Below, piece after piece: positions 12,413 to 35,039 of a stretch of 64,000 nucleotides of DNA (within the stretch, counting starts at the first letter, position 1; each line of letters begins with the position of its first letter). Under the pieces are notes generated by a model. That model ran no database searches and had not been told where the DNA came from. It was given only the letters and a program-made list of their open reading frames with translations. The position numbers were made by a program, and so were the translations under genes. The DNA comes from Escherichia coli (GTDB lineage Bacteria; Pseudomonadota; Gammaproteobacteria; Enterobacterales; Enterobacteriaceae): the NCBI RefSeq assembly GCF_041248615.1, contig NZ_CP158426.1; one strand, 5' to 3'.

Positions 12413-13357
12413 ATGACTATGTCCCTGCATACCAAGATAAGTGCCCCTAACACGACAGCGGCGACCAGCGTATCCTCGCTGGATCTGTCAGGCTCCTCAA
12501 AAACGAAATGTTCAACAGCCAGAACCGATATTTATCAGACTGTTACCGACAGCATAATTGCGGCGCTGGAAACCGGAGTAAAACCTTGGGTGTGTCCTTG
12601 GCAGCGAGCTCCCGGTATGTCCGGTTTACCGTCCAATTACGCCACTGGTAAGGCTTACAGCGGAATGAATATCATGTTGCTTTGGTGCAGCGCGTCAAAA
12701 CAGGGATTCTGTGATTCACGCTGGATGACCTACAAACAGGCAAAAGCGGTAGGTGGGCAGGTGCGCAAGGGAGAACACGGCACTACCGCGATTTTCTATA
12801 CCACGCTGGAAAAGGAAAATGATAACGGAGAAACTGACTATATTCCTATGCTGAAAGCATTCACTGTGTTTAATGTTGAACAAATTGACGGTTTACTCCT
12901 GAGTGATGATGCCGTTTTTCCGGCAGAGATCTTTGAGCCATTACCACGTGCAGAAGCACTTTTTCGTAGTAGCGGTGCAACCATTATTGAAAAAGGACAG
13001 AATGCTTTTTTTACACCATCAACCGACGAAATTCGCTTACCTGAACGGTATCTTTTTATTGATGCTGCTAATTTCTACGCAACCGGCCTGCATGAGCTCG
13101 TTCACTGGAGTGGGGCAAAAAGTCGGCTGAACCGTGAAATGAAAGGGAAATTTGGCAGCGAGGGGTATGCGTTTGAAGAGTTGATCGCTGAGCTGGGGAG
13201 CGCATTCCTGATGGCGGATCTGGGGATAGTTGGAGAAGTTCTGCATGACAGTTATATCGCTTCCTGGCTTAAAGCACTGAGGAATGATAAACGCTATATT
13301 TTCAAGGCCGCCAGCGCGGCATCGAAAGCACATCGCTATTTGATGGATAAAAGCTGA
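12413..13357 (+). CDS. ardC: ArdC-like antirestriction protein (ssDNA-binding N-domain plus zincin-like metallopeptidase C-domain)
   Basis: DIYQTVTDSIIAALETGVKPW N-terminal ArdC-type motif; HExxH motif GLHELVHWSG in C-terminal half; hairpin after stop. Confidence 0.75.
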   Translation: MTMSLHTKISAPNTTAATSVSSLDLSGSSKTKCSTARTDIYQTVTDSIIAALETGVKPWVCPWQRAPGMSGLPSNYATGKAYSGMNIMLLWCSASKQGFCDSRWMTYKQAKAVGGQVRKGEHGTTAIFYTTLEKENDNGETDYIPMLKAFTVFNVEQIDGLLLSDDAVFPAEIFEPLPRAEALFRSSGATIIEKGQNAFFTPSTDEIRLPERYLFIDAANFYATGLHELVHWSGAKSRLNREMKGKFGSEGYAFEELIAELGSAFLMADLGIVGEVLHDSYIASWLKALRNDKRYIFKAASAASKAHRYLMDKS

Positions 13358-20342: not shown

Positions 20343-21098
20343 TTAAATTTGCATTGAGGTAGCGATATCGAGACGTTGCAGTTCGTCAATCGTGTAGATG
20401 CGGAACACATTCCTGTGGCGGGTTTCCAGTGGGATGTGTTGATGATTCACGATGACGTACTGGATGCTGTCAAACAGCCGTTCAAGACCGAGTTTTTTTT
20501 GCGGGTCTGGCACAATATAAAAAACGTAGATCCAGTCTTTACGCGTTCGGGCCAGTAAATGACTGGCTATGATCGACTGGTAACGGGCTTTGGTTTTCAG
20601 ATGGCGCTCGGTCTCGATGGCGATCACCGTGCCGCTGGGGAGGGCAATTAGCCCGTCCGGGCGGTGACTGACCTGATAACGACTCAGGAAAGTTGTGCGA
20701 TCGCCATGTATCCAGCCGCATGCGCCTTTTTTTTCGAGGATGATCCGCGCCATCTGATTATCAAGGTGATGTTCCAGCGTCCAGCCTGTGAGTTTTGAAG
20801 GCTCAAACCGGGCCGGGAAAATTTCATCATCAGGCTGTATTACGACCGCCAGCCCGTCGTTGGTTATTCCCCACAATGAAATTTTCTTCGTACGTGATAC
20901 CAGGACGTGTTTTTGTATTAACCCCATTCCCTCAACTTTTGAAAGCAGGGAATACAGTGATTTATGATCCCTGAAGCCGAACAGCAGCATCAGTGTTGTA
21001 AAATCACTGTACGTTTCTTCTTTCAGGAAATTCAGCAGTCGTATTATCTTCTCGCGATGTCGGGTCTGGCGCTCGCGGTATGCGGTGATAAGCATCAT
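20343..21098 (-). CDS. Hypothetical mobilization protein, possible MobC-like small relaxase
   Basis: 251-aa ORF 8 nt downstream of coupling-protein gene; function inferred from position only. Confidence 0.35.
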   Translation of the reverse strand: MMLITAYRERQTRHREKIIRLLNFLKEETYSDFTTLMLLFGFRDHKSLYSLLSKVEGMGLIQKHVLVSRTKKISLWGITNDGLAVVIQPDDEIFPARFEPSKLTGWTLEHHLDNQMARIILEKKGACGWIHGDRTTFLSRYQVSHRPDGLIALPSGTVIAIETERHLKTKARYQSIIASHLLARTRKDWIYVFYIVPDPQKKLGLERLFDSIQYVIVNHQHIPLETRHRNVFRIYTIDELQRLDIATSMQI

Positions 21099-21106
21099 TT
21101 CCCCTT

Positions 21107-23032
21107 CTAAAAGTTCAGTAACGAGGGATGATCCTCTTTACCTGCACCTGCACCTGCACCTGCACCTGCACTTGTTGTTGTGTGTTTCTCGTCCGGCTTG
21201 TCAAAAAAGAGATCGGGTTGTGTTGTCGTGATAACTGATGTTGATGACGGTCCGGATGACATTTCTTCCTCGTCAAAATTCAGGGCAATGTTGACTCTTG
21301 CGGCGGTGGCGGCAACAGCGGGCGATACGGCACAGATCGCCAGTTCCCTTTTTTTAACCCTGATGGGAGAAATTAGTGAAGCAGAGGGGAGGGCTTTGGT
21401 GGTGAATATAAAACTGACAAAATCAGGCAGGTTCAGCACCATATTACTGTCGATAAAGAAACGCTCGGCCTGCCTGATGGTGCGTTCACTATCGATAGTC
21501 TCTGTCAGCACCGCATCTGTTTTGGCTTTGCGGACTTCGTCATCGACTAATATGGTGCCTGACATTCTTGCCACCCAGTCAGCGGTATCAGGGTCCATGA
21601 CACGATAAACCAGCTTGAATTTGGCATTCTCCACAACTGCACCCACCACGGCATCGCTTTTCAAATCCGCCGGGCAATCTTTTAAATCGGCAATGGATTG
21701 GTGGTCCATAATAATGTGTACACCTTTATCCCGTGCCGCACCTAAGCCTTCCAGCGCAGGCTTGGATAAATGGTATTTCAGTTCGGAAAGGTAAATAGCA
21801 ATAGGGCGGGGTGTGTGGTTTACCCGATCGCGCCTTTCTGCCAGCTGGTACAGGCGAACCAGCAGCATGCGCTGAGCGGTAATAATTTTGCTGTTGCGCA
21901 TCGAGCCAATCACATAGCAGCAACCACCGTTATCAAATATTGTATTGAGGGAAAATCCTGCCGGTGCATTGATGGCATTGAGTAAGGCCAGCTCCTCAAT
22001 TTTCCCGAAAAAGGCTTTTATCTTATCAGCGATACTTTGGACGTATTCCCCGTTATACACATCCCGAATGGTTGAGGTCGTATTACGGGCGACAAATTGT
22101 GCAGCTATTCGGGCTGCTTTGCGATCGTCAATGCGATAAAAGTCAGACTCTTGTCCTTTCTCTGCCAGACTGAAACCCGCGACAAAAAGTTCTTCCAGTT
22201 CATCAGCGGTGATATCGTTAATCAGGTTTAGCTGGTATGCCTGTTTCCTCAGGTCAATTAGGGCAAAGGATTTCCCTGCATCCTCGCAGGCTTTCCGGTA
22301 AAGGTGTGGGGCCCACTCATCATCTTTGGGGTCCATAACAAATACGCCTTCACCGGCCAAAATACTCTGATAAAGTAATATCCCGGTGGCCACCCCTTTA
22401 CCGGCCCCCGTGGTCCCGATGATATCGGCATGTTGTTTTTGCCAGTCTTTTAACGGCAGGTACATCGGCTGTTTCATTCTGTTCATGCCGATAAAAATAC
22501 CTTTACTCAGGTTAATATAATCCTCCGGGTTATAGTGCAATGTTTCCGGTAGCAGCGATTTCACCGTTCGGACATCAGTACGTAATTCCCTTTCCAGAGT
22601 GGTTTTTCTGACGAACCGACTTTTTACTTTATCGAGTTCAGGTGTTAACACCCTGCGCAGAAGAATATGGAAAACAAAACCGGCTGCGGTAGAGGTAATC
22701 AGTATCAGCCAGGAGAGGACAGTATTGCTGGTGGCTATCTTTATTCGGTATATCCATTGAAATAATTCGTTCACCACGGGCGCTATTGTGCCAAACAAAA
22801 AGCACAGTATGGAAAAAACTATCACCAGCTTTTTCCATAAAGGGGCTTTGAGTCGTTCATCGCTTTTCATCGACGCGAAGAATGGCATGGTCAGCCCTGA
22901 GAATAGCGCCAAAATAGGTTGATGCTGGTGCATAAAAACGAGCAGTCCCAGCATGCCGTCCACTATCGGTGATAGTGAAACGATCAGCTTATTTAACACC
23001 ATAATGCTTCCTTTATCGGCCATTCGCCCCAC
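21107..23032 (-). CDS. Type IV coupling protein (VirD4/TraD/MobB-like)
   Basis: N-terminal TM helices; Walker A GTTGAGKGVATG; 641 aa; C-terminal Gly-Ala repeat. Confidence 0.85.
   Translation of the reverse strand: MGRMADKGSIMVLNKLIVSLSPIVDGMLGLLVFMHQHQPILALFSGLTMPFFASMKSDERLKAPLWKKLVIVFSILCFLFGTIAPVVNELFQWIYRIKIATSNTVLSWLILITSTAAGFVFHILLRRVLTPELDKVKSRFVRKTTLERELRTDVRTVKSLLPETLHYNPEDYINLSKGIFIGMNRMKQPMYLPLKDWQKQHADIIGTTGAGKGVATGILLYQSILAGEGVFVMDPKDDEWAPHLYRKACEDAGKSFALIDLRKQAYQLNLINDITADELEELFVAGFSLAEKGQESDFYRIDDRKAARIAAQFVARNTTSTIRDVYNGEYVQSIADKIKAFFGKIEELALLNAINAPAGFSLNTIFDNGGCCYVIGSMRNSKIITAQRMLLVRLYQLAERRDRVNHTPRPIAIYLSELKYHLSKPALEGLGAARDKGVHIIMDHQSIADLKDCPADLKSDAVVGAVVENAKFKLVYRVMDPDTADWVARMSGTILVDDEVRKAKTDAVLTETIDSERTIRQAERFFIDSNMVLNLPDFVSFIFTTKALPSASLISPIRVKKRELAICAVSPAVAATAARVNIALNFDEEEMSSGPSSTSVITTTQPDLFFDKPDEKHTTTSAGAGAGAGAGKEDHPSLLNF
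21137..21166. repeat. Hexanucleotide tandem repeat (CACCTG)x5 within coupling protein C-terminus
   Basis: Read directly; encodes (Ala-Gly)n on the minus strand; in-frame repeat. Confidence 0.85.
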
Positions 23033-23270
23033 GACATCGCCCCCTCAATTCGCCCCACGGTGTTGGGCGAAAAGCTGGGGTGAAAGCAGGGGCAAACAGA
23101 GGTGGCTGCGGTGCAGCCATGTGCCGGTAGATAGACTTTCCGGCCCGAAACGACGTGCACCAGTTCATGCGGGCTGGACGCCCTTATTGCCTGGCGCATG
23201 GGGGTAATGGCGTGGCTGTACGCCGCGCCAAAACCCCCAGGGTCAACGGCGGCACACCGTCGCCCGCTAC

Positions 23271-23633
23271 GCGCGACCAACCCCTTTAAGACGCGCGTTT
23301 CGCCTGTTTTTTTCTCGCAAGCTCCAAAAAACGGGAACGCTGCTTTAAAGGGGTTGGTCGCGCCTGATTGGTAATATCCCCGCTGGGGCGGGAAATATTA
23401 CCTGGCTTGACGGTGTGCGGGGCAAGCCCCCCACAAAAAACGGCACGTGGGCGTGCCTTTTTGCTCGCTGGGGCGGCAAAATTTTTGCGGCTCCCCCGGC
23501 CTGCTTAATTCGCTGTGGGCGAATGTGCGCAGATGGATGCGGTACCTGAAAATTAACAATTTCTGCGAAATTGAATTTTCTGTCCGCGTTCCACTGGCTT
23601 ATTTCACGGCTTAACAATTTCTCCGAAATTGAA
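23271..23633. other. Candidate oriT / relaxosome assembly region with inverted and direct repeats
   Basis: 20-bp near-perfect inverted repeat (23271-23290 vs 23344-23363); two copies of TTAACAATTTCNCGAAATTGAA (23553-23575, 23611-23633), each containing dyad CAATTTC-N3-GAAATTG; lies between coupling protein gene and T4SS genes. Confidence 0.5.
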
Positions 23634-23709
23634 GCCAGAAATTAGCCAGCCTCAACCCCGCCGTCTGTCAGTCTGTGGCGCTGTGAGGCATAGTGTAATG
23701 TCCGGTGGT

Positions 23710-24063: not shown

Positions 24064-24366
24064 TTATCCTCTGAGCCTACCAAATCTGGACAGGATTTTA
24101 TTCACCGCCTCTGGGTCGGCACTGGCACATTCTCCGAGGAAAGCTTTTCTGGCATTCAGTGTATGACCGGGTAAAAATCCGTGTTTATTCTTTTTGACGA
24201 TATTAAAGAAAGTTTTTTCAGCTGAATGGCACTCACTCCCTCCACTGTTTCCGGTCGCTTTCCCGTACATACAAAGCACGACTTCGCATGGGTCAGAGGC
24301 GAAGCAATAAACAGGGAGCACAATGGCAATGCACAGCATTACCGTCGCAATGGAGGCGTATTTCAT
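24064..24366 (-). CDS. Small secreted Cys-containing protein (T4SS-associated)
   Basis: N-terminal signal-peptide-like hydrophobic segment MKYASIATVMLCIAIVLPVYCFA. Confidence 0.5.
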   Translation of the reverse strand: MKYASIATVMLCIAIVLPVYCFASDPCEVVLCMYGKATGNSGGSECHSAEKTFFNIVKKNKHGFLPGHTLNARKAFLGECASADPEAVNKILSRFGRLRG

Positions 24367-24410
24367 GATGAAGTCCTTACCATAATTTCTGTACCAGGAT
24401 ATCGGTATAT

Positions 24411-24806
24411 TTAATGTGAAAAATAAATATAGGTATCGCTACACGTCAGGCACTGAGTTGCAGGTTGATATTCAATAACACCATTTGCGCCATGCTGGCG
24501 AAGCCAGCTTGTTGCAGTAAAGAATGCTGTGCCTGATGGTGCAGCAACAACAATACGCGTCGAATGCGCAACTGCGTAAAATACGTCGGGGGTCCAAAGT
24601 GTCTCGTTAAACTGCGTTGAGTGAACGGACAATAACCACTTCCCATTAACGATTGGGGAAGGATTAATAACGGGGGTGTCATTCCATTGCGATAAATTGA
24701 TATTCACTGACTCGCCCGATTTATCCCATTCAACAGATACCGGTGGGGGTGGTGACGAACAGCCGGTAAGCACCATTAAAAATAACAGTATATTGATGGT
24801 TTTCAT
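24411..24806 (-). CDS. Lipoprotein, 131 aa
   Basis: Signal peptide with lipobox LTGCSS; start overlaps virB11 stop by 1 nt. Confidence 0.6.
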   Translation of the reverse strand: MKTINILLFLMVLTGCSSPPPPVSVEWDKSGESVNINLSQWNDTPVINPSPIVNGKWLLSVHSTQFNETLWTPDVFYAVAHSTRIVVAAPSGTAFFTATSWLRQHGANGVIEYQPATQCLTCSDTYIYFSH

Positions 24807-25849
24807 TATGCTTTCATCTCCTCGAAGAAGGCATTACGGTGCAGTGGCCGGAAATAGATATCATTCATTCGGCGCACGTTGCCGTCTAAATCAATACTGA
24901 CAATAACATCCAGACTGTCCAGCACTTTGCGTAACATAAACGTGTAGGGCAGCCGGGCGCATTGTGGGTTTTCATAACAGCGAGTAATAAAACCGTCTAC
25001 CGCTTCTATTGCTGAACCCGCATGCAGGGAAGTCATACTGCCTTCATGGCCGGAGCCGGTTATTTTGAGAAAATCCCAGGCTTCACCACCGCGCACTTCG
25101 GTTAACAATATACGGTCGGGGTTCATGCGATAATTCCAGCGCAGAAGACTGGCTGGCGTCACAATCGAGCCTTTTTCATCTGCTGATTCGGACGGATAGA
25201 AGAGGTGGACATAGTTTTTATGAACAAAAAAGGTGATTTCCGGATTATCTTCAATGGTCGTAATACGCAAATGGCGAGGAATAAAACCAATCAGCATCTT
25301 CATGTAGGTTGTTTTCCCGGTACCGGTTTCCCCGGCCACCGCGATAGTTTTACCGTACTCCACGCACTTCTCCATAAAGCGCGGGATATCTTTGGCGGTA
25401 TACAGGCTCAACAATTCCTGATCGTGCGTCTGGGTGGTTTCTGAGCCCGTCACCCTGTTATAAAAACCGGCGTCGATATAGCTCTGGTGGGGAATTTGTA
25501 CCTGTGACGGCTTTCGGATAGTAATGGAGACGGTGTTGCGCTCACAGGCCGGAGGGACAATAACCTGACAACGTTCACCGGATTCCAGCGTGGCTGACAG
25601 CCCCGGTTTGATATCTTCAATATTGTCGCAGTGATGCTTTGCCAGGCATCTGGCGAAGTTGTAGCACCCCTCATAATCCAGCGAAACACTGTGCAGCTCC
25701 CAGATACCATTAATTTTGGTAAATAGCTCGCCCGGGCGGTTGACGGCGATTTCTGTTAGTCCAGGATGAGCAATAAAATCGCCAAAAAATCGCTGTGTAT
25801 AGCGATCGAGAGAGATGTTTTTCATGTGATATCCTTGTATCGGATACAT
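24806..25849 (-). CDS. virB11: VirB11-family T4SS ATPase
   Basis: Walker A VAGETGTGKTT; size and position at end of virB operon. Confidence 0.9.
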   Translation of the reverse strand: MYPIQGYHMKNISLDRYTQRFFGDFIAHPGLTEIAVNRPGELFTKINGIWELHSVSLDYEGCYNFARCLAKHHCDNIEDIKPGLSATLESGERCQVIVPPACERNTVSITIRKPSQVQIPHQSYIDAGFYNRVTGSETTQTHDQELLSLYTAKDIPRFMEKCVEYGKTIAVAGETGTGKTTYMKMLIGFIPRHLRITTIEDNPEITFFVHKNYVHLFYPSESADEKGSIVTPASLLRWNYRMNPDRILLTEVRGGEAWDFLKITGSGHEGSMTSLHAGSAIEAVDGFITRCYENPQCARLPYTFMLRKVLDSLDVIVSIDLDGNVRRMNDIYFRPLHRNAFFEEMKA

Positions 25850-25862
25850 TTGTGGAGGGAGT

Positions 25863-26870
25863 ATGTCGAAGACGAAAGTACTGTTCGCTTATTGCCATGA
25901 ACTCGGGCGCTGTTTGTCCATTGATGAAGCGCGAATGGAATTTTTTTCCAGAAAGCCGGAAGAAAGGAAGCGGTTCACTTTTTCATGTAGCGATCGCAAC
26001 TGTGATGTCACCATTAGCGGTGTTAACTATCACGTCAAAGCTGAAGATGGTGAGAAATTCAAGGCTGCGCACTTCCGTTCACCTCATCCTCACAAGTTCG
26101 GATGTGAATGGCTCGAATTCACCGAGGATGCGGATCAGGACCGGCGTCCAGACGAGTCAGAGGCTGATTTCACAGAACGAAAAGCAAAGCAAAAGCTGAC
26201 GGACTATATCAACTGCTTTGACCCTTCAATAGATGATCCTGATGGCGAACCATCCGATCCCGTGAAGCTTGTTACGCCTGTTCACACAAGAAAAACTGTC
26301 GGGGATGATGATAAAACGGGTACAAATGAAGAGCCCCGCTGGAGTCGCTACACGCGAACCAACCAGCTTCAGCGACTTATCGACACATGGCAGGAAGCGA
26401 AAGAAACGCTGCCTCAGGATGAGTTCCGGGCGTTGAGACTCAGGATCATGCACCATGATCAGGTCTATCTACATGAATATATAACGCATATACAGCGTGG
26501 ATTGGCTAATCCGTATTCGGGCGTCATCTATGGTGGTGGGACCCTAATGCATCGGTATGGTCGGGGTTTTCTGATTAATTTCTTTGATAAACATGAGGGG
26601 AAGCCTGTTCGCCTGTATGTCAGTAAAGATCTGATGGCGAAAGGACGGTTTGGTCATTATATCGATGAGATTCTGGACACTAAAAACGTCAGATATTTCC
26701 GTATATTTTTACTCAATCCGGTTGTTTCCGAACGGGAAAACAGCACAGGAAAAAGCGTTATCAACCTTGAAATATCAAAGCTGCGTCAACTGGCTATTTA
26801 CTACGAACTGAACTCCAGCAGAGAAGATGAATCTTCATCGGTGGAGACGGAGGGGGAAAGTCCGGCGTAG
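25863..26870 (+). CDS. Hypothetical protein, 335 aa, Cys/His-rich N-terminus, antisense to T4SS operon
   Basis: Long ORF on opposite strand between virB11 and virB10; N-terminal Cys/His cluster (CHELGRC, CSDRNC, HPHKFGC); acidic C-terminus. Confidence 0.5.
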   Translation: MSKTKVLFAYCHELGRCLSIDEARMEFFSRKPEERKRFTFSCSDRNCDVTISGVNYHVKAEDGEKFKAAHFRSPHPHKFGCEWLEFTEDADQDRRPDESEADFTERKAKQKLTDYINCFDPSIDDPDGEPSDPVKLVTPVHTRKTVGDDDKTGTNEEPRWSRYTRTNQLQRLIDTWQEAKETLPQDEFRALRLRIMHHDQVYLHEYITHIQRGLANPYSGVIYGGGTLMHRYGRGFLINFFDKHEGKPVRLYVSKDLMAKGRFGHYIDEILDTKNVRYFRIFLLNPVVSERENSTGKSVINLEISKLRQLAIYYELNSSREDESSSVETEGESPA

Positions 26871-27187
26871 CGGGCTAATGTTGTCACAAGAATGAGTATA
26901 TCGGTGACGTCAGGCAGCGATATCTGCTTATGTGCCAGCCGGATATCGTCCGGGGAAAAAGGCGGTGCATCCAAAGGGCCTTCACTGATGGTGATACAGA
27001 ACGGTTGCTCTTCTCCTGAGTCAATACTGAGTTCTATCAATGCGCCCCCGGCACGATAGCATGTCATGACTATTCTTCTGATTCCGGTAAGGTGTGACAG
27101 TAAGTCGTTGACGACAGCGTTGCTGAAATCGTCCCTTACGATGACGTCTGTCGCCGTAACACCAAACAAAAACTTTCGATTACTCAC
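26801..27187 (-). CDS. Hypothetical protein, 128 aa, coupled to virB10
   Basis: Start overlaps virB10 stop by 8 nt; 3' end overlaps the convergent 335-aa ORF by 70 nt, so one of the two calls may be wrong. Confidence 0.35.
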   Translation of the reverse strand: MSNRKFLFGVTATDVIVRDDFSNAVVNDLLSHLTGIRRIVMTCYRAGGALIELSIDSGEEQPFCITISEGPLDAPPFSPDDIRLAHKQISLPDVTDILILVTTLARYAGLSPSVSTDEDSSSLLEFSS

Positions 27188-28430
27188 TCTTCATCCTCAG
27201 CGTGTAGATGCCTGAAAAATCAATATCCTGCCCTGTGACCAGGTTGATGATTTCACCCTGATTTTTGTAGAGCGTCGGTGGGATATTAATGCTGTTTTCC
27301 AGCGTGGTACGTGCCATATCCGCCATAGCCTGACGGCTGTTTTCTGTATAGTCGGTATTCCGATCTTTCTGACCGGCGCTGTTGGATGCCCATGCCCCAA
27401 TATCAGGGATCATACCGACCAGTAATGCACCTCCAAATCGCTCCCTGAAATGCGAGTCTATCCAGCCATCAACGCCAGCCTCGCCCAGTTCTCCGGCAGC
27501 ATTCGTATCGACCAGCGGAATATCAAGGAAAGGGGGCTGGCGGGTACGCAGTTTCGTGATGATGATGAATGCGCGTCCCTGTCCATGCGTCATTCCTGTT
27601 TCTGCACCAGTCTGGTACATCCCCGTGGCGGTGGTCCCTTTTTCTATCAGCTTTGTATTACCGCTGGCGCTCCAGATGTCTTCGGCGATCGTGCAGCGGA
27701 TTTTTCCAGCCCGATCTGAGACAAAACGGTAATCCAGTGAGCAGGGAATAGCGGTATTTTCCGGCACGTACAGATCGGGATTATAAGGAATTCGCCGGAC
27801 CGCTGTCGGGGACTGTTCCGGCTGTGGCGACGAGGTGTTTAGCGGCTGACCGGTATCAGAATATTGTGTCTCTGACGGCTGTCTGGCTGAGGATGCCTGC
27901 GTCATTTCCTGATACCGGGTCCGTACCGGATTTCGTACCGCTGAACCTGAACCCTCCCGGCGCACCAGAAAACGGGCTTTATCTAAGTCGGGCAGAGCCT
28001 CCGATCCGTTGGGTGTCGTACTACCAGGGTTGTTGTCCGCCGGTTCTGGTGTTTTCGCGTCGATATAGTGCGTACCCAGATCGGTACGCTGTCGAGAATC
28101 GGTCCGATCTGTCGGGGCCACAGTTTCCTGAGGCTTTTCTTTACCTGGCTGCCAAAGAAGATTGTGGTATATCCAGTTACCCCCCCACGCCAGTGCAATC
28201 AGGGCAACGGCAGCGAATGCCAGAAAAGCGGTGGCTTTCCCCTGCTGGCGCTTTTTCAGTTTATTGACAGCCGGCTGTATTGGATCGTTATTGTCATCAT
28301 CCTGCCAGGTGTGAAGCACAGCTTCACGCTTTGCGCGGGCCTCGCGCTCAAGCGCAGCAATATCATCATCCTTCTGTGTCGGACAGGACCTGGATTCATC
28401 TGGCACAGGATGCAGATGTTCGTCATTCAT
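27180..28430 (-). CDS. virB10: VirB10/TrbI-family T4SS protein
   Basis: N-terminal TM anchor, Pro-rich linker, conserved C-terminal domain; position in operon. Confidence 0.85.
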   Translation of the reverse strand: MNDEHLHPVPDESRSCPTQKDDDIAALEREARAKREAVLHTWQDDDNNDPIQPAVNKLKKRQQGKATAFLAFAAVALIALAWGGNWIYHNLLWQPGKEKPQETVAPTDRTDSRQRTDLGTHYIDAKTPEPADNNPGSTTPNGSEALPDLDKARFLVRREGSGSAVRNPVRTRYQEMTQASSARQPSETQYSDTGQPLNTSSPQPEQSPTAVRRIPYNPDLYVPENTAIPCSLDYRFVSDRAGKIRCTIAEDIWSASGNTKLIEKGTTATGMYQTGAETGMTHGQGRAFIIITKLRTRQPPFLDIPLVDTNAAGELGEAGVDGWIDSHFRERFGGALLVGMIPDIGAWASNSAGQKDRNTDYTENSRQAMADMARTTLENSINIPPTLYKNQGEIINLVTGQDIDFSGIYTLRMKSE

Positions 28431-28449
28431 GTGTACAGTTCCTCAGCTG

Positions 28450-29349
28450 TTAATTGGTTGCGGTTTTTACCACTCGCTCAACTTGCGGGGAGACTGTGGC
28501 ACCATCTGCGACCTGAACCCTGCCGAAACCACGATTTTCCAGGCCGACCACAGCGCCACCGGAACGGAGGACCAGACGGGGGGTAACTTCCTGAATAACC
28601 AGTACGGTGAAGTTGCCTTTCCTGCGGACACTGCTGTTAACCACATGCTCCTGGCCGTTTAGCTCTTTTGTCAAAGAGGGAATGGATTTGGCTGGGGAGA
28701 AGCCCACGAACGTAAAGCGACCATCGTCATAGGCGAAGTCCGGAACGATACGTGTGCTATTGCTCCCCGGATATTTGAGATAGTCCCAGTTTCGTGGCGT
28801 CTGCGCGGCGTTAAGAGCCTGCTGGATATCGGCCTGCTGTTGTTTCTGCTCCCGTTCCCGCGCTTTGGTTGTGACTTCACGGCCCGATTTTTCGTGTGCT
28901 TCATCGGGATAGCGATAACTCACCTGAAAAGCAGGCTGCTGCGATGATTTTTCATCGATGACGTTTAGCTCGACGTTATACAGCCGCCGAGTGGTAACGA
29001 TTAGCATGTTGGTATGCCAGTCGTGACTGTTGGGAGGAATGACCACCTGCGCTGTATTACCGTCCACTCCGGGGGCACCCTGAATCAGGGCTACCGGGCG
29101 GATACTGACCCGGTTTGCGTCTGTTGTGGCTTCCCATGCGTCCTCAAAACCTGGTTTAGCACTGATAACCGCTTCGTCATTGTCAAAGATGAGCGTGGTT
29201 ACGAAACCGGGTCGGGTATTGACGACAGTGACGTTAAACGGGTTATAGACAACCTGCTGGAGACGGGCGTCGTAGCGGCTTGCTTGTGGTATTGCAGCAC
29301 CCCAGGCTATACCGCACATCGCCAGTGCGAAAAGGATGATAATTTTCAT
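28450..29349 (-). CDS. virB9: VirB9/TrbG-family T4SS protein
   Basis: Signal peptide; size and synteny; 1-nt overlap with virB8. Confidence 0.85.
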   Translation of the reverse strand: MKIIILFALAMCGIAWGAAIPQASRYDARLQQVVYNPFNVTVVNTRPGFVTTLIFDNDEAVISAKPGFEDAWEATTDANRVSIRPVALIQGAPGVDGNTAQVVIPPNSHDWHTNMLIVTTRRLYNVELNVIDEKSSQQPAFQVSYRYPDEAHEKSGREVTTKAREREQKQQQADIQQALNAAQTPRNWDYLKYPGSNSTRIVPDFAYDDGRFTFVGFSPAKSIPSLTKELNGQEHVVNSSVRRKGNFTVLVIQEVTPRLVLRSGGAVVGLENRGFGRVQVADGATVSPQVERVVKTATN

Positions 29350-30032
29350 TATTCAACTCCTCTGATTTCACGATCTGCCTGCCAACTTGTCACCGTAAAA
29401 CCGAACGGGTTAACTTCCCGCTCTGTATCGCTCATTTCCTTACTTGGGTCGGAGTGGAATGTCAGGTGGGCATCCCAGTATTCTGTACGCGTACTGCTAT
29501 CAGCGAGGCGGCGGATAGTTTTTTTGTAACGGAGGGTGGCGACTTTATCGGGGGCAGTGCCTTCGGTGATCTGATTAGACAGGATGTCGATATGTACGGT
29601 GTGGGCCTCATTCTGGTACACCTTATCCGGGGCGTCTTTTCCTGAATAAAGTGCCAGATAATCATCATTAACCTGAGGGCTGTTATAGACCTGTACCGTT
29701 GAATAATCGTCCTGTAGGGCAGGGTAAATGTAACGTTCACGCACTCTGACGTAACTTGAGGTCATCGCCTTCTGATAAGCTTCTTCCGCTGTCAGACTCG
29801 TTTGTGACGCTCGGGTGACGTGTTCCAACCGTCCGGTATGATTATCAACAGCATACAGCTCAATAACTGTCTGTTTCAGCGGTAATATCAGCACCACAGT
29901 GGTGAGTGCCAGTATGGCAATGAGTAAGCCCGCGCCACCAACCATAAATCCCGCCTTCGTGGCGCGTTTGTCCCGCTCAATCATTTTCTGCTCAAAGGTG
30001 CGGGAATCAGCAATGATTGACTGTTCACTCAT
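29349..30032 (-). CDS. virB8: VirB8-family T4SS protein
   Basis: Single N-terminal TM segment; size and synteny. Confidence 0.8.
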   Translation of the reverse strand: MSEQSIIADSRTFEQKMIERDKRATKAGFMVGGAGLLIAILALTTVVLILPLKQTVIELYAVDNHTGRLEHVTRASQTSLTAEEAYQKAMTSSYVRVRERYIYPALQDDYSTVQVYNSPQVNDDYLALYSGKDAPDKVYQNEAHTVHIDILSNQITEGTAPDKVATLRYKKTIRRLADSSTRTEYWDAHLTFHSDPSKEMSDTEREVNPFGFTVTSWQADREIRGVE

Positions 30033-30162
30033 GATTGTTTAACTCCGCCATCATCTGAGGCGTGTTTACCGGGATGCCATTCCCACTAAAGGCCAGGGGA
30101 TGGGGTGACTGTGCACAGCCGTAAAGCGCGCACAGTAAAATCAGCGCAATCAAGCGTTTCAT
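30025..30162 (-). CDS. virB7: VirB7-like small lipoprotein, 45 aa (not in ORF track)
   Basis: Hand-translated MKRLIALILLCALYGCAQSPHPLAFSGNGIPVNTPQMMAELNNHE; lipobox LYGC; stop overlaps virB8 start. Confidence 0.5.
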   Translation of the reverse strand: MKRLIALILLCALYGCAQSPHPLAFSGNGIPVNTPQMMAELNNHE

Positions 30163-30245
30163 GGGATGTTTCCTCAGTGGGTTGGATAGAGGGTAGTGTT
30201 AGCGCCGGGGGGATTGACGGAAATAGTATGCAAGGGATGACAAGT

Positions 30246-31310
30246 TTAACGATGAAATTTCTGAACGGTTGTTTCTCTTGATTTTGCCAGCCGTCGGGCC
30301 TCGTTCCTGGCGATCATTTGCTCAATGGCATACTTACGTGCCTGAGCAGCTCTGTATCCCGGGCCGCTGCCGGGTTTATCTGTACTGGCATCTCTCCATC
30401 CCTGAAGATTGTCCTGAATTGCGCGGTTTGTCTGCTTCCCGGCTCCTGCGGCTAATTTCCCTGCACCAAACGCCGCTGCGCCTATACCCACGGCGGACAG
30501 TCCCTGCATGGAGACAGTCGCTCCCGCCCCGGCTAGTGCTCCGGCCAGTTTTGCGGAAAGGTATACCATTATTGCCGCGCAGACCCCGGCGAGACAGACC
30601 TGAGCGCCTAGCTCCACAATATTAGATTGTGCAGATATTTGTGTGGCAATATCTAAGCGGGAGTTTAAATAATTAACGACCACTCGTAGCGACAATGCAG
30701 AAAACAGAACCGTTAATATGGCTGCGAAAATATTTTGCAGCCAGTTGTTAAACATGGGACGTAAAAAGCCATACATGAGACAAAAGATGAAAACGGGGGC
30801 TGTGATGCTGAGCAGCAAAACCATGACCTCTGCGATCATTGCAACAAAGGCTGTAATAGTCATTAAAACGAATATCCCAAGCCACACATAAAATTGAGCT
30901 GTGATGCCCTCGTCTTTTATGTACGTTGAATTATCCATGTCGTGTAACGTTTTGCCTAATACCTTCGCTTTATCCCATAAGCTATCCAGTAGTTGCCATA
31001 TATTATCGTTGCCGGAAAAGCCGTCTTTTAAGCCATTGATAGCGTCAATGACCCCGTCGAGATAACCGCTGACATTGGCCACAAAGGACAGGATGATGGC
31101 CATTCTTATGATGTCCCACATGACGTCCTCCATGGGTGCGGACAACTTACCTGCCAGGCTCTGGTATCCACGCCACATGATATAAAGTGTCGCTGACGTT
31201 GCCGCCAGTCCCAGCATCATGGCGGAGTATGACATCATCAGTCCCTTTGTTGCGTCGGTGACTCCCCCTATCAGGTGTTTTTCAACACCGATAAATACAC
31301 CACCAGGCAT
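30246..31310 (-). CDS. virB6: VirB6/TrbL-family polytopic membrane protein
   Basis: Multiple hydrophobic helices; Gly/Ala-rich C-terminal region; synteny. Confidence 0.8.
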   Translation of the reverse strand: MPGGVFIGVEKHLIGGVTDATKGLMMSYSAMMLGLAATSATLYIMWRGYQSLAGKLSAPMEDVMWDIIRMAIILSFVANVSGYLDGVIDAINGLKDGFSGNDNIWQLLDSLWDKAKVLGKTLHDMDNSTYIKDEGITAQFYVWLGIFVLMTITAFVAMIAEVMVLLLSITAPVFIFCLMYGFLRPMFNNWLQNIFAAILTVLFSALSLRVVVNYLNSRLDIATQISAQSNIVELGAQVCLAGVCAAIMVYLSAKLAGALAGAGATVSMQGLSAVGIGAAAFGAGKLAAGAGKQTNRAIQDNLQGWRDASTDKPGSGPGYRAAQARKYAIEQMIARNEARRLAKSRETTVQKFHR

Positions 31311-31320
31311 ATTAACCTCA

Positions 31321-31548
31321 CTATGAATTCAGGTTGGGAGTGGGGGCATTTAACTGTTGAATCTGAAAATGAGCTTCATTGGCATTTTTACAGTTTTCAG
31401 AGGCATCGCCGGTTTTCAGGCATTTTTCATATACTGTTTTCAGCTCATCGGGATGATCTTTGTACCACTGGGTAGTTTTGGTTTCGTCTCTGCAGCCGCA
31501 AATGATGAGGAATAAAATGGACAGGAACGAAAGGGTTAATAAACGCAT
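31321..31548 (-). CDS. Small lipoprotein, possible entry-exclusion protein
   Basis: MRLLTLSFLSILFLIICGC signal/lipobox; located between virB5 and virB6; internal start of track ORF 31321..31608. Confidence 0.5.
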   Translation of the reverse strand: MRLLTLSFLSILFLIICGCRDETKTTQWYKDHPDELKTVYEKCLKTGDASENCKNANEAHFQIQQLNAPTPNLNS

Positions 31549-31559
31549 GTGAAACTCCT

Positions 31560-32267
31560 TTAACGGTTTAAATCGGAGGTTGGTGCAGTTAACTGCTGCT
31601 GGTTCCACTGTTTGAGACGCTCATCCTCCAGCACTTTCCCGCGTTTTTCTGCCGCCTTCACACTCATTTCCCATTGATCAGTGAGCGTGTTCAGCATCAC
31701 TGATTTCAACTGAATACTGTTGGCAAGGTCCAGCGACTCCTTTGAGTCTTTAGAGAGTGCAATCCGGTTTGAAAGATTATTGATCTCACCCAATGTTTGG
31801 CTGACCTGATCCTGGATCTCGTCAGTCTGCTCAAACTGAATTGCCTTATTGATAACCTGTTGTTTGCAGATATCGGCATAGCTTCCGGACTGCGCCGCGT
31901 TGCACGTATCGAAAACCCGGTACTTTGCGTATAGCGCATCGAACTGCCCGGCGATGCCACCAGAAAGTAGCAGGTCGTTGAGTGTCTGGCCCGGCTTACG
32001 CAGTTTTTCCAGATCTGATTTAAGACTCTTCGCCTGATCAACGAAATCAACAATATTCCGTACACCGGTGGCCGTTGCTAACTGGTCTTTATATGCCTGA
32101 ATTTGGCTCTCATAATGCTGCGCTGTTTGTATCCAGCGTTGTGCCTCTTTCAGCCATTCGAGCTCACGTAGTGGGTCAGCATCCACCAGAACAGGGATAC
32201 CTGCGTGTGCCATCGGGCTGATGATCACACACGCAATAATTAATGCATGAAAACGCCGTTTCATCAT
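31560..32267 (-). CDS. virB5: VirB5/TrbJ-family minor pilus protein
   Basis: Signal peptide MKRRFHALIIACVIISPMAHA; coiled-coil content; synteny; start chosen downstream of virB4 stop. Confidence 0.7.
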   Translation of the reverse strand: MMKRRFHALIIACVIISPMAHAGIPVLVDADPLRELEWLKEAQRWIQTAQHYESQIQAYKDQLATATGVRNIVDFVDQAKSLKSDLEKLRKPGQTLNDLLLSGGIAGQFDALYAKYRVFDTCNAAQSGSYADICKQQVINKAIQFEQTDEIQDQVSQTLGEINNLSNRIALSKDSKESLDLANSIQLKSVMLNTLTDQWEMSVKAAEKRGKVLEDERLKQWNQQQLTAPTSDLNR

Positions 32268-32284
32268 GAATCTCCTGTGGATTT

Positions 32285-35029
32285 TCAGAGTGCCTGAGCC
32301 AGGTAAGTATCCAGCCATTCATGGGGCTGCATTCCTTCCCGGTAGAGAGAGTCGAAGATTTCCAGGTTGTCGGCGCTGCCGCTCATGACTTTTGTGTACC
32401 TGCCGATCCCGGAAAGATCGAGCGTCACACGTGCAGCAAAACGCTTTATGTCGCCACGTCTAAATTGATTTTTTACCACTACGTACTGACGGGCCTGAGG
32501 ATCCAGGGCTTTCACGACGTCGAACACTTCCGGCTCAAACTTCATTCCGTCGACATAGTGTTCCCTGTCAGCACTGGGGTTGGCTGCCAGGATCTGCGTG
32601 CCGCACTGCTCAATCACGGCAGGCGCAATTTCATCCCTGATGATCTCCGCCGGGGACTGTGTTCCAACAACCAGCATCCCGTTTAGCTTGCGGATAGTTT
32701 TCAGTCGGTTATAGGCGAAATCCTTAAAAACCGGATCCCGTAGCCATTTCCAGAACTCATCCATGAAGATAACCAGTCGACGTCCGTCGAGTAGGCTGGT
32801 AATGCGGTACAGCAGATAAAAGGAGATCGGTGCGCAGATATTCGTATCGTCAAGAAACTCTGTGCCGTCAATGCCAAAGTTATCGCAGCGACTGATATCG
32901 AAGGTGTCTGATGCGTTATCAAACACCCAGCCAAACTCGCCACCCTGCGCCCACTGTGACAGGCGAATACTCAGGCCATTCTCCTGGGCTTCTCGGGTCG
33001 CAGGCTCCGGAAGATTCTCCAGTAAACGGGTGATCCCATGAATACGGTACTGTGGTTCATTACCGATCACCGCCAGTATGGCATCATTTAGACGTCGTTC
33101 ATTGCGGGGCGTGATGGTCGCACCGTTACGCGTACACAGCAGTTTCATCAGCTGACTGATAAAACTGATATTGCGTTTCGTGGGCGATAGCGAAAATGGG
33201 TTCCACCCGGTGGGCTCTCCATGTGTAATACGGTAATAACGGCCTTGCAATGCCCGGATATTCATTTCAGCGCCACGATCCTTATCCAGATAAACGGTTG
33301 TCAGTCGTTTGGTTTTTGCGTCGGGAGAAAAACTCTCCGTACGGCTATATTTCTGCTGCATGTTTTCCAGAAACGTCATGAGCATGGTTTTACCCGAACC
33401 GTTGGTACCGAGAATGCAGGTACTGGCTGGATTCTTCTCGTTGAATTCATCCTTATCCGCCAGCGTATTGTGAAGGTTCAGATAGTATCCATCCCCTGAT
33501 GGGGCACGCAGTAAGGCCATCGCATCCCCCCAGGGCGCATTATCGCGCTTGCCGGGATAGAAATTGTGTAGCGAAGCCAGCTCGACAAAATTCTGACTGC
33601 TCAGCTCACCCTTGCGGGGCCGCAAATGATAATTGCCAGGCAGTTGCGCCATATACCCGGCTGAAAGAGAAAGCGCGGCGGGAACCGATATAATGCCGAG
33701 GTTGTTCAGGGCATTGCTGATTTCGCTGGTATCGGCTACCAGACTATCCAGCGTCTGGGAAAACACCATGATGGAAAAATGGTGTTTTCCATACGCAATT
33801 TTTCCCGATGTCAGCAGGTCAAGCGCCACATCCAGATCCAGCCGCTGAGACACCGCATCATCATCTGAACTCATTAACAGACGTCGGGTGCGTTTGATGG
33901 CCTTCCGGGCTTCTTCCCGTGACATGCAGGTGTAGGACTGTGTGATGACATAATCACAGGGGGCATAAAGCAGAGAATCCATCATTCCAGTTGCTGTTTC
34001 TTCAGGGAACTCTTTAACTTCCAGACCCCGGAAATACTGGGTGCCGCCGGTATGGTTTATCTGTCCAGACTCCCCGGAGAAAAACAGCGCCGCCGATCCC
34101 ATGACGGAATATGCAGGAGCACGGGTGACGCGGATCCTGCGCCATTGGTGCGTCAAGAGATACTCGTAAAAGGATAACTGGGAGGAGAATACCGCCTGTT
34201 CTTCGCTGAAAGTACCAAGAGAGTGTGCGGCGTAGCGTGACAGAGCGGTATCGAGGGTACCTTTAATTTCCAGCATCCCCTGCAACACACCGTCAAGCTC
34301 TTTCAGTTTCTGGCCGTCTTTCATACGCCGGTGTCCGGCTTTTTCCAGACTGGCAAAAGGGCGGTAGCAGGCAGTCAGGAACAAGCGGTTACGGCGAAAC
34401 GGGTTAGCCTCCAGCGAGGCATAATACAGACGGCTGACTTCATCAGCGTAAGGGTTGCCGGATACCTTATGTAGCGAATCGGTAAATGGCTCCCTTACGT
34501 TATGGATATAGAAGGTGACCGGCATCCCCTCGAAAGAGCGGATAATTCCGTGCAACTGGTTACGGTCAATATTGAGCGTTTCTTCTGATTCACAATCGAA
34601 CGGAGTGCCCGTCAGTTCCCAGGTACAGTAGAGGTCACTATTGGGTGAGCGGACGACATGTTGATGAATATGCGATGAATACGGAATGTATTTCCTGAGC
34701 GTGGCACTCTGATTCAATTTCATGACGTTGAGAAACTCCGTGATATCAACAGCATCATGCTCAATGGGCATAAATGCTGTTGCGCCAAATAGACGGTTTG
34801 CCGCAGGTTTTCCTCTTGCCCTGAGCCAGACGGCTATCAGGCTGAACCGCATGGGTTCATTCTTGGTAAGCGATTTCATCAGCAGAAATTCAATCGGGAG
34901 TAGGGCGAGGAAAGCGACGGAGGTCCAGACAGCAATGATGATGGTGATACCCGTGACAGCCAGTAGAGGCACCATCGGCACTCCCCATAGTGCCGCCGGA
35001 CGTCTCATTGCCTTAAGCAGCTTTGCCAT
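32285..35029 (-). CDS. virB4: VirB3-VirB4 fusion T4SS ATPase
   Basis: 914 aa; N-terminal TM VirB3-like segment; large ATPase body; synteny. Confidence 0.9.
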   Translation of the reverse strand: MAKLLKAMRRPAALWGVPMVPLLAVTGITIIIAVWTSVAFLALLPIEFLLMKSLTKNEPMRFSLIAVWLRARGKPAANRLFGATAFMPIEHDAVDITEFLNVMKLNQSATLRKYIPYSSHIHQHVVRSPNSDLYCTWELTGTPFDCESEETLNIDRNQLHGIIRSFEGMPVTFYIHNVREPFTDSLHKVSGNPYADEVSRLYYASLEANPFRRNRLFLTACYRPFASLEKAGHRRMKDGQKLKELDGVLQGMLEIKGTLDTALSRYAAHSLGTFSEEQAVFSSQLSFYEYLLTHQWRRIRVTRAPAYSVMGSAALFFSGESGQINHTGGTQYFRGLEVKEFPEETATGMMDSLLYAPCDYVITQSYTCMSREEARKAIKRTRRLLMSSDDDAVSQRLDLDVALDLLTSGKIAYGKHHFSIMVFSQTLDSLVADTSEISNALNNLGIISVPAALSLSAGYMAQLPGNYHLRPRKGELSSQNFVELASLHNFYPGKRDNAPWGDAMALLRAPSGDGYYLNLHNTLADKDEFNEKNPASTCILGTNGSGKTMLMTFLENMQQKYSRTESFSPDAKTKRLTTVYLDKDRGAEMNIRALQGRYYRITHGEPTGWNPFSLSPTKRNISFISQLMKLLCTRNGATITPRNERRLNDAILAVIGNEPQYRIHGITRLLENLPEPATREAQENGLSIRLSQWAQGGEFGWVFDNASDTFDISRCDNFGIDGTEFLDDTNICAPISFYLLYRITSLLDGRRLVIFMDEFWKWLRDPVFKDFAYNRLKTIRKLNGMLVVGTQSPAEIIRDEIAPAVIEQCGTQILAANPSADREHYVDGMKFEPEVFDVVKALDPQARQYVVVKNQFRRGDIKRFAARVTLDLSGIGRYTKVMSGSADNLEIFDSLYREGMQPHEWLDTYLAQAL

Positions 35030-35039
35030 AGATAACCTC

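Follow-up and report, generated by a model that had tools for sequence, protein, structure and literature searches.

The stretch of DNA analysed here (64,000 nucleotides, hereafter the window) contains, according to its ORF list, two co-directional minus-strand open reading frames at 21107..23032 (641 aa, GTG start) and 20343..21098 (251 aa, ATG start). A sequence-only reading had described them as a Walker-A coupling protein and, 8 nt downstream, a small protein in a MobB/MobC-like arrangement, and the frames and the gap were found as it stated; the Walker A motif reads GTTGAGKG (residues 206-213). The features of the pair are as follows:

20343..21098, minus strand: mobC, predicted MOB_C-family relaxase gene (N-terminal winged helix and C-terminal PD-(D/E)XK nuclease domain)
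21099..21106, minus strand: mobB-mobC spacer AAGGGGAA, 8 nt (sequence read)
21107..23002, minus strand, with the ORF open to GTG 23032: gene of a mobB-type coupling protein (T4CP; Pfam, homology, PGAP annotation)

Both genes are real, and their RefSeq annotation is already correct. The coupling protein more likely starts at ATG 23002, giving 631 aa instead of 641, because a good Shine-Dalgarno sequence (AAGGAAG) lies 5 nt ahead of this codon, which is also the start in PGAP; for MobC, PGAP takes the second ATG (21095), yielding 250 aa. The spacer AAGGGGAA reads as the Shine-Dalgarno sequence of mobC, indicating translational coupling of the two genes.

The pair is carried by an ICE of about 51.8 kb at tRNA-Asn of Escherichia coli NRZ14408, with intact 17-bp repeats, integrase and virB1-11, in agreement with the earlier proposal of a tRNA-Asn ICE with a VirB-type T4SS. 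Its relevant features in the window are:

12413..13357, plus strand: ArdC anti-restriction protein (Pfam ArdcN and MPTase-PolyVal, synteny)
24064..36088, minus strand: VirB-type T4SS (PGAP annotation; Pfam and NCBIfam matches)
37479..37664, minus strand: AlpA-family regulator or excisionase candidate (PGAP annotation)
48423..49694, minus strand: tyrosine integrase, P4 type (Pfam Arm-DNA-bind_3, Phage_int_M, Phage_integrase)
49855..49931, minus strand: tRNA-Asn, whose 3' end carries the 17-bp att repeat CCAGTCAGAGGAGCCAA (49855-49871)

CCAGTCAGAGGAGCCAA recurs outside the window, about 1.5 kb to the left of its first nucleotide (record 2081785-2081801). The T4SS, which is the secretion channel served by MobB, comprises virB1, B2, a B3-B4 fusion, B5, eexN, B6, B8, B9, B10, B11 and Cag12-like and TrbM-like genes; VirB11 matched TIGR02788 with 294.5 bits, Cag12 and TrbM were recognized by Pfam, and VirB1 and VirB5 by NCBIfam. 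The AlpA-family gene matches the position of xis in ICEKp (PMC6202445), and the 14-kb mobility module defined for ICEKp in the same study (xis, virB T4SS, oriT and mobBC; PMC6202445) is present. No ybt genes were found between int and the T4SS, an interval occupied by porin, amiA, MFS and ABC transporter genes; because the yersiniabactin (ybt) locus is missing, the element is regarded as a ybt-less relative on the same backbone and not, strictly speaking, as HPI/ICEKp. The genes ardC and mobC are conserved neighbours in related ICEs and plasmids; here, inserted cargo and an IS3 element intervene. Of the two IS3 copies, one follows mobC at a distance of 600 bp and the other, frameshifted, sits at the left end; two extra ORFs are situated between virB11 and virB10, a pseudo-integrase fragment is present in the cargo, and Lamassu is among the defence cargo. 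Over the full length of the element, the 1.5 kb to the left of the window included, no other relaxase was detected by Pfam, NCBIfam or annotation, which extends to the entire ICE the previous remark that no large canonical relaxase is visible in the window.

The sequence-only reading had considered the 251-aa protein to be either the relaxase or an accessory factor, and the evidence decides for the former. The protein matched the NCBIfam model NF041423 (MobC_subf) over profile positions 1-240 of 240 with 362.8 bits (cutoff 200) and shares 85% identity with ICEEc1-type MobC; tblastn identities were 79% for ICEKp, 64% for the IncFIB plasmid and about 50% for the pMET1-like one, and CloDF13-type MobC is 29% identical (E=3e-26). 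For comparisons with CloDF13, proteins were taken from the CloDF13-like Klebsiella plasmid L006 and only the nic sequence from NC_002119, whose fragmentary mob-region annotation led us to take no protein sequences from it. The Pfam scan of the protein gave no match even at E<=10, PF13814 (Replic_Relax) included, and MobC is placed in the family by NCBIfam, by its fold and by transitivity through homologs; PF13814 does match 34 of 121 aligned MobC homologs, among them CloDF13-type MobC (1.7e-22). No match to any HUH relaxase family was obtained in the Pfam and NCBIfam searches for HUH/3H relaxase domains. PDB sequence searches returned a chance match for MobC (E=0.78), none for the T4CP and no solved structure of a MOB_C relaxase, and neither MobC nor the unassigned backbone ORFs of the element matched PHROGs or PADLOC.

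The AlphaFold model of MobC (pLDDT 96.8) predicts a MarR/PadR-like winged helix at the N-terminus and a PD-(D/E)XK nuclease domain, making up two thirds of the protein, at the C-terminus; these correspond to the N-terminal winged helix-turn-helix and the C-terminal restriction-endonuclease-like domain of MOB_C relaxases. Residues D148, E162, E164, K168, R172 and Y173 are conserved in 115-117 of the 121 diverse homologs, and hhalign aligned MobC with the pTEF1 counterpart of pAD1 TraX at a probability of 96.7%, placing D148/E162/E164/K168/Y173 opposite D152/E170/E172/K176/Y181 (TraX numbering is that of the pTEF1 homolog, the presumed counterpart of pAD1 TraX). According to reviews and secondary citations, the TraX active site has been validated by mutation (PMC12857230, PMC6736028), and pAD1 transfer needs Y181 of TraX, the DEE motif of MOB_C being described in the same paper (PMC6736028). 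Taken together, HMM, predicted fold and catalytic residues identify the 251-aa protein as a MOB_C relaxase and not an accessory factor, and by analogy with its homologs it would possess nicking activity. The ICEKp1 texts consulted report tests of mobB, virB1 and oriT and make no mention of a mobC knockout.

Two other identities of the protein were weighed. It is very improbable that the protein only binds oriT as an accessory factor, or regulates transcription, while a co-resident plasmid supplies the relaxase in trans: MarR/PadR regulators are indeed the strongest matches in whole-protein fold comparison, the oriT region contains palindromic boxes like those of dimeric wHTH operators, and elsewhere the name MobC designates accessory proteins (PMC12857230), but the nuclease domain dominates the protein and its near-invariant D-E-E-K residues align to the TraX active site, reported as validated by mutation (PMC12857230, PMC6736028). 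Two labels attached to the name were rejected, namely the RHH accessory 'MobC' of ColE1/RSF1010/RA3 type for its wrong, unrelated fold, and 'molybdopterin-guanine dinucleotide biosynthesis protein MobC' as a database misnomer. The MobC of CloDF13 is the relaxase of that plasmid, and CloDF13 MobB/MobC, from Nunez and de la Cruz in 2001, is reportedly the MOB_C1 prototype. We give almost no credence to the idea that the gene is cargo encoding an independent defence or restriction-like nuclease, or a toxin, and sits beside the T4CP by coincidence. The nuclease fold is common to type II restriction enzymes and CRISPR-ancillary nucleases and the element also carries Lamassu; against this, the T4CP-mobC order with its 8-nt, Shine-Dalgarno-only spacer is conserved across ICEs, plasmids and Enterococcus pTEF1, MOB-suite types the replicons carrying this pair as MOBC, and the PADLOC and PHROGs searches gave no match.

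The product of the 641-aa ORF is, on homology and motifs, a MobB-type coupling protein, and it is the only T4CP of the element in Pfam and NCBIfam scans and in PGAP annotation. It matched Pfam TrwB_AAD_bind with 31.3 bits (cutoff 20.5) and T4SS-DNA_transf with 25.4 bits (cutoff 20.1), and showed 78-79% identity to ICEEc1-type and ICEKp MobB and 34% to CloDF13-type MobB (E=2e-69, residues 177-566), which bears out the earlier MobB assignment. The Walker B position, LDE or KDE in plasmids, reads YLSE in the MobB of the window, of the ICEEc1-type ICE and of ICEKp, with Ser replacing Asp; the ICEKp1 MobB, with the same deviation, is still essential for transfer (PMC6761156). A hydropathy scan, a rough predictor of topology, placed three hydrophobic segments at residues 16-34, 69-87 and 105-123 (Kyte-Doolittle means of 1.8-2.7). 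In CloDF13 MobB, an N-terminal TMD of three helices (~150 aa) is essential and the protein has a dual role (PMC7431656), which by homology the MobB of the window may share.

Upstream of mobB, the neighbouring oriT-like region pointed out previously carries a CloDF13-like nic core, and consists of the following features:

23033..23709, no strand: oriT region between a 101-aa ORF and mobB (conservation, homologs)
23271..23289, minus strand: mobB-proximal inverted-repeat arm, reading TTAAAGGGGTTGGTCGCGC, with the second nic-core copy
23345..23363, plus strand: mobB-distal inverted-repeat arm (sequence, CloDF13 analogy)
23553-23575 and 23611-23633, no strand: two 23-bp direct repeats, each with the palindrome CAATTTC-N3-GAAATTG (repeat search)

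The region has a mean column identity of 76% with its counterparts in the ICEEc1-type ICE, ICEKp, the pMET1-like plasmid and the IncFIB plasmid, and similar sequences (72-91% nucleotide identity) occur in 277 PLSDB plasmids, 187 of which are predicted to be conjugative; in ICEKp1 the virB11-mobB interval functions as an oriT (PMC6761156). Each arm of the perfect 19-bp inverted repeat carries the core GGGTTGGTCGCG, found twice in the window (0.06 occurrences expected) and resembling the mapped CloDF13 nic sequence GGGTG/GTCGGG (PMC5935869). In CloDF13 itself, the exact nic sequence falls within the mob-distal arm of the inverted repeat, with the same two-arm geometry around it; the exact core pattern GGGKTGGTCG fails on CloDF13-type plasmids, for which a relaxed pattern was used. 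By this analogy, nic is predicted at GGGTTG/GTCGCG on the plus strand, between 23356 and 23357. The arms exhibit compensatory changes at three positions between lineages, an observation drawn from two lineages plus CloDF13 because L011-L013 share the IncFIB/IncY lineage of L008; as judged from these alignments, the compensated changes show selection for symmetry, not its purpose. The 23-bp repeats occur as two exact copies, against 0.7 chance matches expected when up to 2 mismatches are allowed. CloDF13-type plasmids lack their palindrome, which ICE, pMET1-like and IncF-type oriTs have conserved. The repeats are candidate sites for a dimeric winged-helix protein, perhaps MobC.

Related modules were found in 313 of 5426 complete E. 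coli genomes, with near-identical copies in five unrelated ones, and MobC homologs in 1420 plasmid records; the T4CP-mobC order is kept in ICEs, conjugative plasmids, mobilizable plasmids and Enterococcus pTEF1. We consider it unlikely that the module is a decayed remnant, with intact genes on an element that no longer transfers and a pair devoid of current function. The IS3 insertions, the ORFs inserted between virB11 and virB10, the pseudo-integrase fragment and the deviant Walker B of MobB would be consistent with decay, but mobB and mobC are full length against their homologs, the oriT repeat is perfect, all virB genes are intact, as are the integrase and both copies of the 17-bp att repeat, the near-identical copies occur in unrelated genomes, and the Walker B variant is common to the transfer-proficient ICEKp1 (PMC6761156).

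The gene pair is thus, with high confidence, the DNA-processing (Dtr) module of the ~51.8-kb ICE, a reading carried by the family, fold and catalytic-residue conservation of MobC, the conservation and symmetry of oriT, the completeness of the element and the absence of a second relaxase from its annotation and domain matches. In the proposed mechanism, Int/Xis would excise the element, after which MobC (250-251 aa) would bind oriT upstream of mobB through its winged helix and cut one strand in the GGGTTG/GTCGCG core, in an arm of the perfect 19-bp inverted repeat, by means of a BamHI-like PD...ExE metal-binding site formed by D148, E162 and E164, with K168 and Y173 close by. MobB, anchored in the membrane by its N-terminal three-segment hydrophobic domain, may serve, as in CloDF13, both as a relaxation helper and as the coupling ATPase feeding the nicked strand to the VirB1-11 channel of the element; the mob genes would be the last to enter the recipient, and strand piloting and rejoining are presumed from homologs. 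Work on MOB_C relaxases has detected no covalent intermediate, and for CloDF13 a free 5' end has been described (PMC6736028, PMC12857230). An alternative that we rate as improbable is that MobC, being similar to restriction enzymes, which are normally dimeric, pairs both 19-bp arms and nicks both strands, 78 nt apart, at GGGTTG/GTCGCG, so that either strand could be transferred or a staggered break would arise, and that, without a covalent adduct, the Walker-B-deviant MobB pilots the free 5' end into the VirB channel; if true, this would make the start of conjugation fundamentally unlike that by HUH relaxases.

The favoured reading of a single-strand-nicking Dtr module brings minimal novelty, the oriT-mobB-mobC layout having been published for CloDF13, ICEEc1 and ICEKp1 and the genes having already been annotated, and it sheds no new light on how MOB_C enzymes act without a detectable covalent intermediate. 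Its practical value is that a ybt-less relative of the high-pathogenicity-island ICEs now has a relaxase type (MOB_C) and an oriT assigned to it; the element can therefore be rated as potentially self-transmissible, and it may also mobilise plasmids with the same oriT type (277 in PLSDB). Moreover, with its perfect 19-bp symmetric arms and lineage-specific compensated changes, this oriT offers a clean natural substrate for work on the MOB_C mechanism.

Among known systems, the RHH 'MobC' proteins of ColE1/RSF1010/RA3-type MOB_P/MOB_Q systems have only the name and the association with a relaxosome in common with the MobC of the window, as they are ribbon-helix-helix proteins devoid of a nuclease domain and partners of a separate HUH relaxase (PMC12857230). 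TraX (pAD1/pTEF1, Enterococcus), a biochemically characterised MOB_C relaxase, resembles MobC in combining a winged helix with a PD-(D/E)XK domain, in the D-E-E, K and essential Tyr aligned residue for residue, and in its gene lying downstream of a T4CP gene; it also binds repeats far from nic (PMC12857230), and the repeats of the window lie ~200-280 bp from the inverted repeat. It differs in its ~18% identity, Gram-positive host, other T4SS type and a small ORF between the genes. The oriT-mobB-mobC arrangement has been described in HPI-ECOR31, ICEKp1, pCRY, pMET1 and CloDF13 (PMC2262945). CloDF13 shares this gene order, the large N-terminal hydrophobic domain of MobB and a nic core, GGGTGGTCG, within a two-arm inverted repeat upstream of mobB, whereas, as a small mobilizable plasmid, it encodes no T4SS of its own, the arms of its imperfect inverted repeat are 84-89% complementary and 47 nt apart, it has no CAATTTC-N3-GAAATTG boxes, and its MobB possesses a canonical Walker B (LDE, in place of YLSE). 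The conjugative plasmids pCRY, pMET1, p29930 and IncFIB-IncY (MPF_T and MOB_C) have the same oriT type, mobB-mobC followed by ardC, and a VirB-like T4SS, but are plasmid replicons with a phospholipase-D-family nuclease gene after mobC that the window element lacks, the IncF lineage differing further by compensated arm changes and a longer spacer. Finally, ICEEc1 (the HPI of E. coli ECOR31) and the ICEKp1/ICEKp family are tRNA-Asn ICEs sharing the backbone of the window element, with the order int, xis/alpA, virB1-11, Cag12/TrbM, oriT, mobB, mobC and ardC, identical 19-bp arms, palindromic boxes, 17-bp att repeat and the YLSE variant; in ICEKp, virB1, mobB and oriT are required for transfer (PMC6202445, PMC6761156). 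Nucleotide identity across the mob region is only ~82%, and the ICEEc1-type comparator carries fyuA, ybtE, ybtT and ybtU where the window element has other cargo (porins, amiA, MFS and iron-type ABC transporters, Lamassu, UbiD/UbiX, GT32/GH16 and hchA), the latter being further distinguished by the two extra ORFs between virB11 and virB10 and the IS3 insertions.

In the ORF listing, both genes of the proposed MobB/MobC-like arrangement, a coupling protein followed by a 251-aa protein, are present and co-directional:

21107-23032, minus strand, mobB, ORF of 641 aa from a GTG start
20343-21098, minus strand, mobC, ORF of 251 aa

The two are separated by 8 nt (AAGGGGAA), a spacer that doubles as ribosome-binding site. 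The ATG at 23002 of mobB is preceded by a strong Shine-Dalgarno sequence (AAGGAAG), so the product is more likely to have 631 than 641 residues, a cosmetic correction with which the RefSeq annotation agrees. The PGAP annotation, read from the chromosome of E. coli NRZ14408 (NZ_LT599825.1; 100% identical to the window), names mobB 'type IV secretory system conjugative DNA transfer family protein' and mobC 'mobC: MobC family replication-relaxation protein'. Many public homologs of the mobC product are titled 'molybdopterin-guanine dinucleotide biosynthesis protein MobC', an annotation error arising from the collision of the gene names mob (mobilisation) and mob (molybdopterin); similarly misnamed, relatives of the 101-aa ORF upstream of oriT (23710-24015) carry the label 'dpoa decarboxylase'.

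The 251-aa protein matches the whole NCBIfam profile NF041423, 'MobC family replication-relaxation protein' (E=6.7e-109, 362.8 bits, cutoff 200). It is 85% identical to MobC of a yersiniabactin (ybt)-bearing ICEEc1-type element, and tblastn gave identities of 79% with ICEKp, 64% with an IncFIB conjugative plasmid and ~50% with a pMET1-like plasmid; identity to MobC of a CloDF13-type plasmid, typed MOBC by MOB-suite, is 29% (E=3e-26). An exhaustive search returned 414 representative homologs; aligning 121 of these, at 24-85% identity, showed H110, Q115, P147-D148, E162, E164, K168 and R172-Y173 to be near-invariant. The AlphaFold2 model is very confident (pLDDT 96.8, pTM 0.92). The E. faecalis V583 plasmid pTEF1, a pheromone plasmid of pAD1 type, encodes a 'replication-relaxation family protein' whose gene likewise lies downstream of that for a type IV coupling protein (T4CP). 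Comparing the profile of this protein with that of MobC gave 96.7% probability over 210 columns and aligned D148/E162/E164/K168/Y173 of MobC with D152/E170/E172/K176/Y181. PMC12857230 and PMC6736028 describe MOB_C relaxases as winged-helix and PD-(D/E)XK enzymes with a BamHI-resembling D-E-E motif, report TraX Y181 as essential for pAD1 transfer, and state that no covalent intermediate with DNA has been detected. Judged by sequence and structural model, MobC has every defining feature of MOB_C relaxases, and nicking activity is predicted. Ribbon-helix-helix accessory proteins also called MobC are unrelated to it, having the name alone in common.

In MobB, the Pfam domains TrwB_AAD_bind and T4SS-DNA_transf both exceed gathering cutoffs, and a Walker A motif (GTTGAGKG) occupies residues 206-213 of the ORF product. 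The protein is 78-79% identical to its ICEEc1-type and ICEKp counterparts and, over the cytoplasmic domain, shares 34% identity with CloDF13-type MobB (E=2e-69). Three strongly hydrophobic segments lie within its first ~125 residues, similar to the TMD of CloDF13 MobB, a domain of three helices that is unusually large and required for mobilisation; CloDF13 MobB has been called atypical, as T4CP and relaxation helper in one (PMC7431656). The Walker B position (21876-21887, residues ~411-420 in 641-aa numbering) reads IYLSE, not hhhhDE; YLSE is shared with ICEEc1-type and ICEKp MobB, whereas plasmid homologs keep DE (LDE/KDE), and the deviation has already been noted for ICEKp1 MobB (Farzand et al. 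2019, PMC6761156). The C-terminal tail (21107-21200) is acidic and of low complexity, with an (AG)5 run in the window copy only, and its terminus is conserved as hydrophobic/aromatic (SLLNF in the window, SPLDF and SLLDL in relatives); in this it recalls the tails by which T4CPs dock proteins of the relaxosome.

The pair belongs to a chromosomal island flanked by a 17-bp repeat (CCAGTCAGAGGAGCCAA), the positions of which give an element of about 51.8 kb:

49855-49871, 17-bp repeat copy 1, 3' end of tRNA-Asn
~1.5 kb left of the window start, 17-bp repeat copy 2

A P4-type tyrosine integrase is encoded beside tRNA-Asn, and the element also encodes an AlpA-type regulator or excisionase and a complete VirB1-B11 set with Cag12- and TrbM-like genes. 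The virB set is followed by a 677-bp non-coding region, mobB and mobC, with an ArdC gene further along, past inserted cargo. Neither the annotation nor a search of unassigned ORFs yielded a second coupling protein on the element or, besides MobC, a relaxase of HUH, MOB_H, MOB_T or other type. The sequence-only reading, which had seen no large canonical relaxase, therefore holds for the whole element, and the relaxase encoded elsewhere that would have spoken against it is lacking.

The 677-bp region, between the 101-aa ORF and mobB, shows 76% mean column identity with its equivalents in the ICEEc1-type ICE, in ICEKp and in one plasmid each of the pMET1-like and IncFIB types, and similar sequence was found in 277 plasmids. 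Its repeats are:

23271-23289 and 23345-23363, perfect 19-bp inverted repeat, 55-nt spacer
23553-23575 and 23611-23633, two 23-bp direct repeats, each with the palindrome CAATTTC-N3-GAAATTG

The window contains two copies of the inverted-repeat core AGGGGTTGGTCGCGC (0.06 expected by chance). For CloDF13, nic has been mapped at 5'-GGGTG/GTCGGG-3' (Nunez & de la Cruz 2001, cited by PMC5935869), a sequence found upstream of the mob genes, where it is part of the mob-distal arm of an imperfect inverted repeat analogous to that of the window. By analogy, nic is predicted at GGGTTG/GTCGCG on the plus strand, between 23356 and 23357, with a symmetric second candidate on the minus strand; two nic sites within 'IR2' were already proposed for pMET1 and HPI-ECOR31 (PMC2262945). 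The arms of the ICE/pMET1 lineage (GCGCGACCAACCCCTTTAA) and of the IncFIB/IncY lineage (GCGCGACCACCCCCTAAAA) differ at 3 positions, all three compensated in the partner arm, so that the 19-bp symmetry is perfect in both, which is evidence, from two lineages only, of selection for symmetry itself. The direct repeats with their palindrome are conserved across ICE and large-plasmid oriTs and were absent when looked for in CloDF13-type plasmids. They resemble operators of a dimeric winged-helix protein, for which MobC would be the obvious candidate; TraX likewise binds repeats far from nic (PMC12857230).

In the proposed transfer mechanism, Int and Xis would excise the element as a circle, MobC would bind oriT and nick one strand at the inverted-repeat core with the assistance of MobB, and MobB would couple the DNA to the VirB channel. 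Y173 of MobC, equivalent to TraX Y181, is a candidate for a transient DNA link. Transfer would run 5' to 3' away from the mob genes, which would thus enter the recipient last.

Two ORFs are inserted between virB11 and virB10, genes that overlap directly in the ICEEc1-type and ICEKp relatives:

25863-26870, plus strand (opposite to the virB genes), 335-aa ORF
26801-27187, minus strand, ORF of up to 128 aa overlapping the former (PGAP: 26801-27067)

Neither has a family assignment, with no match in Pfam, NCBIfam, PADLOC or PHROG searches. The left-end cargo (357-6380, plus strand) is a complete Lamassu anti-phage system, comprising two LmuA-type effectors (one with a metallo-beta-lactamase fold, the other a trypsin-like protease with ABC-3C CTD4), LmuC and a 1045-aa LmuB SMC-like ATPase (PADLOC E-values from 1.8e-44 for LmuC to 1.6e-269 for LmuB). 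CBASS and Hachiman occupy the corresponding site of the ICEEc1-type comparator, and the region past mobC/ardC therefore appears to be a hotspot for defence islands. In related ICEs the yersiniabactin locus lies between int and the T4SS; in the window this interval (38988-48188) holds genes for two porins and an MFS transporter, as well as amiA, an HTH regulator gene and a FecCD-type ABC transporter set. Of two IS3-family copies, the one 600 bp downstream of mobC (18470-19743, plus strand) is intact (orfA/orfB, programmed frameshift) and the other, just within the left att repeat (record 2082159-2083311, left of the window), is frameshifted; a pseudo-integrase fragment lies near 13517-13918. 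Directly past tRNA-Asn and mtfA is tRNA-Ser (50923-51012, plus strand); a second mobile element, unrelated to the ICE, takes up the sequence from 51065 onward, with a frameshifted integrase and a prophage region of lambdoid (Rac/Qin-like) type that carries exonuclease, dicB, ydfABC and hokD.

Published descriptions of the oriT-mobB-mobC layout cover CloDF13, p29930, pCRY, pMET1, HPI-ECOR31/ICEEc1 and ICEKp (PMC2262945, PMC6202445, PMC6761156); the mobB-mobC finding is correct and already known, RefSeq naming both genes correctly. Among 5426 complete E. coli genomes, only 5 have a mob region near-identical to that of the window. Since its backbone has no yersiniabactin locus, the element lacks a defining feature of HPI/ICEKp and is a ybt-less relative of the high-pathogenicity-island ICEs. 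What distinguishes it from them, namely this lack, a different cargo that includes Lamassu, the inserted ORFs and the IS3 copies, falls outside the mobB-mobC pair.
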